A stretch of 37,505 nt of DNA from IMG/VR virus record IMGVR_UViG_2541047777_000011. One strand, 5' to 3'. The DNA is from a virus. Its lineage: Duplodnaviria; Heunggongvirae; Uroviricota; Caudoviricetes. Positions 29,301-32,300 of this stretch are shown here, piece by piece; within the stretch, counting starts at the first letter, position 1; every line of letters begins with the position of its first letter. Made by a program: the position numbers.

Positions 29301-32300
29301 AGACCGCCCACCAGGATAATTCAGCCAGCGATAACTCCCGCTCCTGCGTGCCATTCATTGCATGGCGTATGACGTCAATCATCCATGCTGCCAGGTTTTG
29401 TTGAGCAAGTTGCTCAAGTGATTCGGATGTCTGGTCACGCAGCTGGTTATCGCAGTGCCAGCACAACACCATCGCGCCGGTGCCGTAACGATGTATGACG
29501 GTTTCACTGTGATGATAGTCACCATGAGGCCACTGGCAGGATTTGACATGACGCAACAGCCAGTCAGACAGTGCACCAGCGCCGCCAGCAGCACGAATCA
29601 CACGCTCATTGCTGAAAAACCGCAGTAATGATTTATCCTCCGCCAGCGGCTGGCGAACGGCAGGGACGATGCCGGACGGCAGACCACGCATGCTTTTCGG
29701 TTCCGGCTCCACCAGCACTCGAGGGTTATGGAATACCTGCATGGATTCACGGCCTGGTTTAAGGACCACCAGCCCAAGTTCCGGTACCGGAACAGGTCGA
29801 AGTAATACCCGCACGTTACCTCCAGATGCGTTGCTGGAATGTGCGGGACGGACGCGGTGGGCGCTCGGAGTACGGCAGCCTGACGTAGATTATCCAGTGA
29901 CGATAATCGAGGCTGAGGGCTTTCTTAACCTCGTATCCACGCCTGCGGTAACACTGAATTATCCATTCAGCCTGCTCTTCAGTGCATGGAGGATGCTGGA
30001 ACCAGTCTGATTTGAATGCGTGAAAACGCCGTCCGCACCTGCTGGCAAAGACGGCAGAATCATTAGAATTGTGTAATTTGGTATCGTGCGCCATCGGTTG
30101 TCTCTGCTGGCGCAGCAGGTGCCAGTTGTTCAGGCTGGCGTGCGAATTGTAAACCAGAATGCCAGGAAAAAACAAAACCCGCCGAAGCGGGTTACGTGCG
30201 GGTGCGTTGAGGATGCCTGACACATCAGAGGTGGCGAGGGATTTCTCCCTCGCCGGGTCTCTTACTCCTCAGGTTCGTAAACTGTGAAGACAGCGACCTC
30301 CGTCTGGCCGGTTCGGATTCGTACCTCGCAGAGGTCTTTCCTCGTTACCAGTGCCGTCACTATGACGGTTAAACAGATGACGATCAGGGCGATTAACATC
30401 GCCTTTTGCTGCTTCATAGCCTGCTTCTCCTTGCCTTTCGGCACGTAAGAGGCTAACCTACATGTGTTCAGCATGGATTGAGCCTCAGATTAATGTTAAG
30501 CGTCTTGCAGGACGCGTAATGTTAACTGGGGCTTTTCTCTATCTGCCTTTTGGTGTTCATGCCTGAGGCAGATAGCCTCAAGCACCCGCAGCAATTCTAC
30601 TTAACTCACGTCACCTCGCCAATATGAAATCAATCAGAAAGGTGATCCATAAAATCACTCCTTCTCTTCTTTTCCGTAGTGGAGTTGGCCAATTTTGATA
30701 AGAGGGCGCCCCTGAGATTTGCGGTGTAGATTGGTATCGCGCAGAGAATACACACAGCCACAATATTCCTGCTGATAGAATTTTTCGCGCTTGCTGATTT
30801 CAATCATACGGGACGAGCCGCCCTGCTTGCGCCAGTTATAATCCCAGTACACCATACCCGGATAATGCGCAACAGCTCGCCGCCCACACTCGTTAACCTG
30901 CTGCATATTTTTCCAGCGTGAAATGCCCAGTGAACTGCTGATCACACTGAAACCATTTTCAGCAGCGTACAACGCTGTCCGCTCAAAACGCATGTCAAAA
31001 CACATGGTACAACGGATCCCCCTCTCAGGCTCCCATTCCATTCCTTTGGCACGTTCAAACCAGTTGTCGGTGTCGTAATCAGCATCGATAAACGGCACGC
31101 CGTGTTGTTCAGCAAAGCGAATATTTTCATCCTTACGAATTAAATACTCTTTCTGAGGATGAATGTTCGGGTTGTAGAAAAAGATGGTGTAGTCGATTCC
31201 CGAGGCCTGAAGCGCCTCCATCACTTCACCGGAACATGGAGCACAGCAAGAGTGCAGTAGTAGTTTGTTTGCCCCGTTTGGGAGCTCCAATTTAGGCCGT
31301 TTGAAATCAGCAATAGTCATAAATATTTTTATTGGGGTCATGAAAATAGCACAGAGTGTAGCATCAGAGCAGGGCTATCGGGAATATATGTCTAAATCTG
31401 GTAATATCTGGTTTTGACGCAAAGCGGACAACCACGCTGGCTCTACCCTGCGCCATGAAAATGTCAATTCACATCTGAACTAATGCTCTTTAATCTAGTA
31501 ACGTCTAAAATACCTAACATTTCCTTGATAAAATGCCAGTACACGCTGCATAGCTTCGCTCTTCCGGCACTCGCGACAGATTATATTCAGGCGCCTGTCG
31601 TAGCGGCGTATTTCGCCGTCTGGTAACGACCAGATAAGGTCCGGATCAACCGCAGATGGTTTATTCAGCTTTGCCCTTGAGAGCTTTTTACGGGCATTTT
31701 GCCAGTCCTTACGCGCCTGTTCAGACGGGAATAACCCGTAACCAGAGTTGTATACATCGCCACTGGCAACCAGCTCTCTGGCCAGAACGCTCATCAGATA
31801 TCTTGTTGCCCCAGTTTTAGCTTCCAGTTGTCGTAACGTCTCGCGCCCACTCTGGCGTACGAGTTCAAGAACCTGCCCTTTAATTTTTTCCCGCTCTTCT
31901 TGTGTAAAAACTTTTGCCACAAGCCCTCCTGAAAATTACCTCATGACCAGAAATTAACACTTACCCCCTGAAGCCCGGCGGAATTTCGTTATCCGGTTCA
32001 GAAATATGATTCACACAACGCTGGTTGTTCGTGCCGCTTACCGGGAGCAACCAGGGGTTTTCAAAATTCCGGTCCGGTCCAAAAAACGTCGTCGCTCGCT
32101 GAACAAATTCCGTTCCCGTTTTCCCGGTAGCCGCCAGGTATCTTGCGTAACGCCTCACACCATCCAGCATGGCCTCTGGTGGCACCCCCTCGCGTAATCT
32201 GGCCTTCCAGGCACTGAAAGCGGATTTCTTCGGGTTTGCCCCAGCACGCAACGGGTATTCCCGCCAGACCTGTTCGAACACATCCGGATAATCCACTCGT

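Follow-up and report, generated by a model that had tools for sequence, protein, structure and literature searches.

A candidate epoxyqueuosine reductase gene, queH, in a cargo slot of a lambdoid Escherichia coli prophage

According to the textbook account, Escherichia coli finishes queuosine with the B12-dependent enzyme QueG, and the epoxide intermediate builds up without B12. Why, then, would a lambdoid prophage carry queH, a gene whose predicted product belongs to an unrelated family of epoxyqueuosine reductases? We addressed this question for the IMG/VR viral record IMGVR_UViG_2541047777_000011 (37,505 nucleotides (nt); the whole stretch is called here the window). A preliminary description, made from the sequence alone, had pointed to two minus-strand open reading frames (ORFs) lying between a replication gene and hok, one of 228 amino acids (aa) attributed to the QueH (DUF208) family and one of 141 aa regarded as its partner. 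Both ORFs were found where they had been placed (30655..31341, beginning with ATG, and 31495..31920, beginning with GTG), and the claimed neighborhood was confirmed by ORF, RefSeq and Rfam data, the local gene order being O-like replication gene, DUF977 (the 141-aa ORF), queH, and hok/sok. The analysis reveals that queH is a discrete single-gene insert between conserved backbone genes, that it has retained all conserved metal-binding residues of its family, and that it coexists with queG in every E. coli genome that possesses it.

Family membership and translation start of the queH product

The 228-aa ORF matches the Pfam profile PF02677 (DUF208) over positions 1-174 of 175 with 221.5 bits against a cut-off of 23.5 bits (E = 1.1e-65), i.e. 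far beyond chance, and the corresponding RefSeq protein, WP_000150294.1, already bears the name "epoxyqueuosine reductase QueH". No NCBIfam model matched either QueH or the DUF977 protein. The Cys-rich motif noticed earlier occupies residues 27-37 (numbering of the 228-aa ORF is used throughout), and further Cys residues are found at positions 111, 114, 152, 194 and 196. A phmmer search against solved structures returned entries of Thermotoga maritima QueH (TmQueH; 7lc5, E = 8e-22) as the only relatives found by sequence, with all six TmQueH Cys aligned. Among 65 full-length representatives of 50%-identity clusters, which are 32-74% identical to the query, C32, C33, C111, C114, C194 and C196 are invariant, barring one sequence gapped at C111/C114. 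These six residues reportedly (Li et al. 2021) serve as the ligands of a [4Fe-4S] cluster and an adjacent iron. Position 36, equivalent to Asp13 of the T. maritima protein (of which a D13N mutant structure has been deposited in the PDB), is occupied by Cys in 61 of the 65 representatives and by Asp in 4, including T. maritima; thus the CCAPC form of the prophage protein, with Cys36, is the majority state of the family.

The AlphaFold (AF2) model of the protein (predicted local distance difference test score, pLDDT, 73.5; predicted template modeling score, pTM, 0.74) has TmQueH entries as its top five matches in the PDB, with template modeling (TM) scores of 0.56-0.65 when referred to the query and 0.75-0.79 when referred to the target (0.63-0.65 and 0.76-0.79 for the best of them), followed by TtuA-type Fe-S sulfurtransferases. 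Compared with T. maritima QueH (PDB 7LC5/7LC7), the prophage protein therefore has the same six Cys (arranged as CC..., CxxC and CxC) and, according to the model, the same fold, and it differs by the Cys at the Asp13 position. The attribution to the QueH/DUF208 family thus survived the suggested checks of profile, structure and metal-binding residues: the profile match is significant and covers the full length of the family, the positions of the Cys motif and all metal-binding Cys are conserved, and TmQueH is the best match of the predicted fold. Judging from these features, the 228-aa ORF very probably encodes a QueH-type epoxyqueuosine reductase.

The preliminary description was right about the presence of the ORF, but not about its start codon. 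ATG 31341 (228 aa) has to be replaced by ATG 31320 (221 aa), which is 21 nt shorter: the former is ATT in the ST70 allele, whereas the latter is invariant across alleles, is the start annotated in RefSeq and coincides with M8, at whose equivalent the chromosomal orthologs begin. The coding sequence is therefore 30655..31320 on the minus strand, i.e. 221 aa and a stop codon, and its product is identical to WP_000150294.1. PHROG 3217 (annotated with "unknown function") and many database entries start still further downstream, at M41 (codon 31221-31219, in the stretch 31201-31222), past the CCAPC motif. We rejected M41 as the start of the functional product, since codons 1-33 are under purifying selection, with synonymous to non-synonymous differences of 6:1 against the ST70 allele, 11:3 against Scandinavium and 17:5 against Kluyvera; this excess of synonymous changes argues that the full-length QueH is the selected product. 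In phage HannyBb the full queH ORF is annotated as a "hypothetical protein". Such labels, together with the gene models that begin at M41, may represent an annotation gap that hides phage QueH from surveys.

The cargo segment, its origin and its maintenance

To delimit the queH-specific DNA, the locus was compared with phages that lack the gene. The window shares homology with mEp460 and Tritos, two such phages, up to position 30652 and again from 31403-31414 onward, which defines a segment of about 750 bp (30653..31402, minus strand) comprising the ORF and 82 bp upstream of it and missing in otherwise homologous phages. In the ST70 allele the flanks differ, and the minimal unit that it has in common with the window spans 30651-31369. 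In place of queH, the same junctions enclose PD-T7-1 in mEp460 (E = 4e-157) and a PDC-S15/FRG-domain protein in Tritos (E = 1e-98), while directly downstream of queH the KwaA/KwaB genes of Kiwa are found in strain SX23 and an NgoMIV-type restriction-modification (R-M) system in O157:H7 (Z1813) (slot coordinates in the comparison loci: L093:1324-2673; L094:1524-2858; L008:1653-3292; L005:1306-3316). Of the best 80 among the 191 IMG/VR contigs with relatives, to which all neighborhood counts from that database refer, 55 have a hok-type region downstream of queH and 21 have one of the NgoMIV R-M type. In the Qin prophage of K-12, relB-relE-ydfV-flxA lies upstream of hokD; the earlier statement that Qin carries relBE at this place is correct, relB-relE being found directly upstream of hokD, and the slot, described before as variable, indeed varies in our synteny survey. 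The exchange of cargo at shared junctions indicates that this slot is a cargo/defense hotspot of Rac/Qin-like lambdoid phages, in which queH is a single-gene moron. PD-T7-1, PDC-S15, Kiwa, R-M and Qin relBE resemble queH in their insertion junctions and single-cassette architecture, at times in tandem; unlike them, QueH is a housekeeping-type tRNA modification enzyme that has no PADLOC match. No family of PADLOC-DB v2 matches QueH or the DUF977 protein at E<=0.001, and the neighboring cargo in other phages matches strongly. GC content is not diagnostic, being 0.44-0.50 in the queH region, slightly below that of the flanks (0.50-0.59).

The closest queH genes without phage neighbors are those of Scandinavium (92% aa identity), Kluyvera (91%) and Enterobacter (88-90%), in a family that is strongly conserved in Proteobacteria (75-80% identity even in Sphingomonas and Stenotrophomonas). 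Among the best 80 genome loci, E. albertii alone, with a 100% identical QueH, has DUF977, O-like and hok neighbors; in the other 79 no homologs of DUF977, the O-like gene, hok, DUF968 or RusA were found within about 4 kb of queH. In Providencia, for instance, the neighbors of queH are housekeeping genes whose Pfam domains are of the TmcA, SAICAR-synthase and BamC types.

A short element upstream of queH appears to have been captured with the gene. The nonamer TGCTACACT (31355..31363, minus strand; TG at 31363-31362, hexamer at 31360-31355), lies 43 nt ahead of ATG 31320. It conforms to the extended -10 pattern TGnTAnnnT and is invariant in the six prophage alleles that we compared (those of the window, ST131, HannyBb, 95-3322, ST70 and SX23), including ST70, whose sequence further upstream is unrelated. 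At 42-44 nt upstream of the start, the chromosomal queH genes of five relatives (Scandinavium, Kluyvera, two Enterobacter and Symbiopectobacterium) have TGCTACAAT, TGCTACACT or TGCTACCCT between diverged flanks, and the closest chromosomal relative from read assemblies has TGCTAAAAT. The pattern begins at -55 to -30, a test window of 26 nt, in 15 of 40 Enterobacterales loci, while control windows, which lie 200 nt farther upstream and are, at 102 nt, wider than the test window, contain it anywhere in 3 of 40 cases. We infer that queH may be transcribed independently from this putative native promoter as well as by read-through of the early operon.

Several lines of evidence indicate that the prophage gene has been maintained. 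Among the six prophage alleles dN/dS (the ratio of non-synonymous to synonymous substitution rates) is 0.04-0.085 with dS up to 0.48, which points to an intact gene under purifying selection. We found queH in 995 of the 5426 RefSeq complete E. coli genomes (18%, a share inflated by clonal sampling), at one or two places per genome, and at least 80% of the gene is covered in 985 of these 995 copies. The isolated, viable temperate phage HannyBb has queH in the same position, and the best 80 of the IMG/VR contigs encode the identical protein. Two records labeled "Acinetobacter phage MD-2021a" (CAKLQH020000001.1 and CAKLQF020000001.1, 328-378 kb) contain a QueH that is 78% identical and annotated as "putative prophage protein"; judging from their size, we suspect that they represent bacterial chromosome rather than a phage genome.

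Coexistence with QueG and the possible role of prophage QueH

K-12 queG was found at >=90% coverage in all 5426 complete E. coli genomes, hence every queH-positive E. coli has both enzymes. QueH is thus indeed not the standard E. coli enzyme for this step, as had been remarked (queG in 5426/5426 genomes vs. queH in 995/5426), and the non-orthologous displacement of QueG, which is the usual pattern for QueH and not a defining feature of the enzyme, is not observed in E. coli. Prophage QueH departs from the known pattern both in coexisting with QueG, instead of replacing it, and in residing in a defense/moron hotspot of a lambdoid prophage. Within one cell, the two proteins are predicted to carry out the same reaction, in which epoxyqueuosine (oQ34) is converted into queuosine (Q34), but QueG (E. 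coli yjeS) belongs to an unrelated family, requires B12 and a [4Fe-4S] cluster, and is chromosomal and universal in E. coli. Dependence on cobalamin is characteristic of QueG and independence from it of QueH (PMC11906303). Staphylococcus aureus likewise has both QueG and QueH, whose divergent expression has been attributed to cofactor availability (PMC13443448); as in E. coli, two isofunctional reductases with different cofactors are present in one genome, with the difference that the pair is presented as a feature of S. aureus itself (PMC13443448), whereas the second copy in E. coli is strain-variable and phage-borne.

The explanation that we favor, and consider rather probable, is that the product of prophage queH is active and reduces oQ to Q independently of B12, completing Q34 in the lysogen when cobalamin is limiting, and that the gene was captured, along with its promoter, from the chromosome of a member of the Enterobacteriaceae. 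According to this scenario, a Rac/Qin-like lambdoid phage would have taken up queH and its native -10 element as single-gene cargo from an Enterobacteriaceae relative, and the encoded QueH (EC 1.17.99.6) would reduce oQ34 to Q34 on tRNA-Asp, -Asn, -His and -Tyr, by means of a [4Fe-4S] cluster and an adjacent iron, alongside the cobalamin-dependent QueG of the host. E. coli does not synthesize cobalamin de novo, so prophage QueH would free the completion of queuosine from the supply of B12; MetE backing up MetH is an analogous B12-independent backup. Frey et al. in 1988 are said to have observed accumulation of oQ in E. coli without B12, and DUF208 genes reportedly complement an E. coli queG mutant (as Zallot et al. 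are said to have found in 2017). Since queH belongs to the early rightward operon, in which the scan placed no terminator ahead of it, it would probably be transcribed during lytic growth too.

A number of points weigh against this explanation. It presumes a fitness benefit of Q over oQ. The structural model of QueH is of only medium confidence, as its pLDDT shows. ATG 31320 has no Shine-Dalgarno sequence, and a Shine-Dalgarno-like GGTGA lies before M41; a product starting there would miss three Cys of the CCAPC motif, among them two invariant ligands. A generic sigma-70 scan, which needs a -35 element, found neither a promoter ahead of queH nor a terminator. Finally, 707 of the E. coli copies are at least 99% identical, and it is the sampling of clones such as ST131 that inflates the share of queH-positive genomes among the RefSeq complete genomes.

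The QueH family, its chemistry and the name of WP_000150294.1 are already known, therefore our finding extends existing knowledge and does not reveal a system of a new kind. New relative to the literature that we searched, in which we found no description of this gene (WP_000150294), are its phage context, how widespread it is in E. coli and the conserved putative promoter element. Hutinet et al. 2019 found no homologs of QueA, QueG or QueH in the viruses they analyzed (PMC6884629). The 7-deazaguanine (preQ0/G+) clusters of phages (DpdA, FolE, QueC/D/E) are similar to queH in that they bring genes of the queuosine pathway onto a phage, but they act on phage DNA via early-pathway genes, while queH is a late-step tRNA gene. 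A phage-borne, predicted B12-independent alternative to QueG is present in about one-sixth of the complete E. coli genomes, among them ST131 and further lineages of extraintestinal pathogenic E. coli (ExPEC). If QueH is active, K-12 and many clinical strains would differ in queuosine status and in its effects on NAU decoding, stress and virulence phenotypes, and the prophage would provide a clear case of a temperate phage with a late-step queuosine tRNA gene.

It is conceivable, although rather unlikely, that QueH serves primarily the phage, its expression from the early operon after induction topping up Q34 and favoring the decoding of NAU codons in late genes; such a role would be compatible with the explanation given above. 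One strand holds cro, ydaT, the O-like gene, DUF977, queH, hok, DUF968, rusA and Q, and the generic promoter/terminator scan called no terminator between these early-operon genes. Queuosine has been reported to modulate NAU decoding (PMC10570037). The fraction NAU/(NAU+NAC) is 0.57 in the early and head genes, 0.63 in the tail genes and 0.53 in a K-12 sample, but the difference is small and only suggestive and the host sample tiny (8 genes). This role also presumes that oQ and Q differ in decoding, none of the four tRNA genes of the prophage (described below) is a substrate for queuosine, and the conservation of a native -10 element suggests that the gene is expressed apart from the phage program.

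We regard it as improbable that QueH is defense or counter-defense cargo, which would change the wobble state of the GUN-anticodon tRNAs and so shield them from, or lay them open to, anticodon nucleases of competing phages, colicins or defense systems, or that its substrate is a different epoxide or 7-deazapurine. The company it keeps would fit such a function, with PD-T7-1 and PDC-S15 at its junctions and Kiwa or the NgoMIV-type R-M system directly after it; these hotspots, however, gather non-defense morons too, and QueH itself is without a PADLOC hit. The protein is 88-92% identical to chromosomal QueH of the housekeeping type and has kept every catalytic residue, hence there is no sign of neofunctionalization. 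In addition, RefSeq annotates no tgt/DpdA or other queuosine/7-deazaguanine gene across the region of strain IHE3034 that matches the window. Just as improbable in our view is the broader idea that the oQ/Q state of the GUN-anticodon tRNAs is selected in phage-phage or phage-host conflict, through susceptibility to nucleases or a translation bias against superinfecting phages. Should it be true, defense or counter-defense cargo would in this case have arisen by recruitment of a housekeeping enzyme of tRNA modification.

Even less credible is the notion that queH is a neutral hitch-hiker, functionless in E. coli. The gene is dispensable, given that queG is universal, and 82% of the complete E. 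coli genomes lack it, but neutrality is contradicted by a dN/dS of about 0.05 at the synonymous divergence reached among the prophage alleles, by the 99% of copies that are of full length and by the conservation of the putative promoter element.

The partner proposed in the preliminary description has fared worst. The 141-aa protein, which had been called unrecognized, is a member of Pfam DUF977 (PF06163; 100.4 bits vs. a 22.1-bit cut-off, E = 1.1e-28, profile positions 1-133 of 134) and of PHROG 142 (E = 5e-47), and phage records refer to it as "Ren-like exclusion protein" or "LygF". Its basic character and its CxxC motif were described correctly: the isoelectric point is 10.05, and the single CxxC (C115, C118) is invariant in 13 close homologs with 87-95% identity. 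In the model of the protein, the N-terminal residues 1-85 form a winged helix predicted with confidence (pLDDT mostly >90), for which the fold search gave weak matches to the DNA-binding domains of GntR, MarR and AraR (E 0.02-0.09); the C-terminal half, with the CxxC, is modeled at low confidence. The gene (31495..31920, minus strand) is a backbone gene, the last of the replication module, and is not part of the queH cargo, as the cargo boundary at 31402 lies downstream of it. All of the best 80 IMG/VR contigs have DUF977 upstream of queH, 76 of them with a spacing of about 178 nt, and the order is the same at each locus of E. coli, E. albertii and phages that we inspected; all these linked copies trace to one insertion site, which makes the linkage positional. 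About 80 phage records contain DUF977 but no queH, as do Tritos and mEp460 with their other adjacent cargo, and DUF977 is missing near queH at the 79 genome loci outside E. albertii, so that the two genes do not co-occur reciprocally. They can also be separated by insertions, namely a 90-aa opposite-strand ORF without a family match in ST70 (L007:4427-4699, plus strand) and a methyltransferase fragment in 95-3322 and HannyBb (L006:4268-4453, minus strand). That QueH and DUF977 form a two-gene accessory system, an idea that draws on their constant proximity in prophages, is therefore hardly to be believed, and the data favor instead a single-gene cargo with a putative promoter element of its own.

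Other features of the window

The region 30400-32000 of the window is 100% identical to the prophages of the ExPEC strain IHE3034 and of the uropathogenic E. coli 26-1. The counterpart in IHE3034 is a lambdoid prophage with head genes of the HK97 type that adjoins tRNA-Ser and mtfA. At the left end of the window (1-2101, minus strand), beside tail-fiber genes, we found cdtC, cdtB and cdtA of the type I cytolethal distending toxin (CDT-I), and the window therefore represents a lambdoid prophage that belongs to ExPEC of the IHE3034 type and carries CDT-I.

On its downstream side, the queH slot is bordered by the hok/mok/sok type I toxin-antitoxin locus (30262..30587, minus strand; PF01848, E = 6e-22), with the sok RNA (Rfam RF01794, 120.5 bits) at 30412-30587. 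The sole minus-strand site called by the generic promoter scan, at 30622-30594, is located upstream of hok. The Rfam scan revealed no riboswitch or other RNA element beside queH; its matches are confined to sok, the tRNAs, and the DicF, isrK and C4 antisense RNA families, the last three in the immunity/early-left region (36155-36629, plus strand). The four tRNA genes of the prophage (26169-26478, minus strand) are Gly-UCC, Thr-UGU, Lys-UUU and one with a CAU anticodon, which is assigned to Met by ARAGORN and to Ile by RefSeq.

A 135-aa ORF at 29816-30223 (minus strand) is probably over-extended, since its match to PHROG 1212 is confined to the C-terminal 66 residues; RefSeq has a 92-aa hypothetical protein instead. 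A toxin-antitoxin pair of the RelB/RelE type is encoded at 34323-34801 (plus strand) beside a repressor-like helix-turn-helix gene, i.e. in a location different from that of relBE in Qin.

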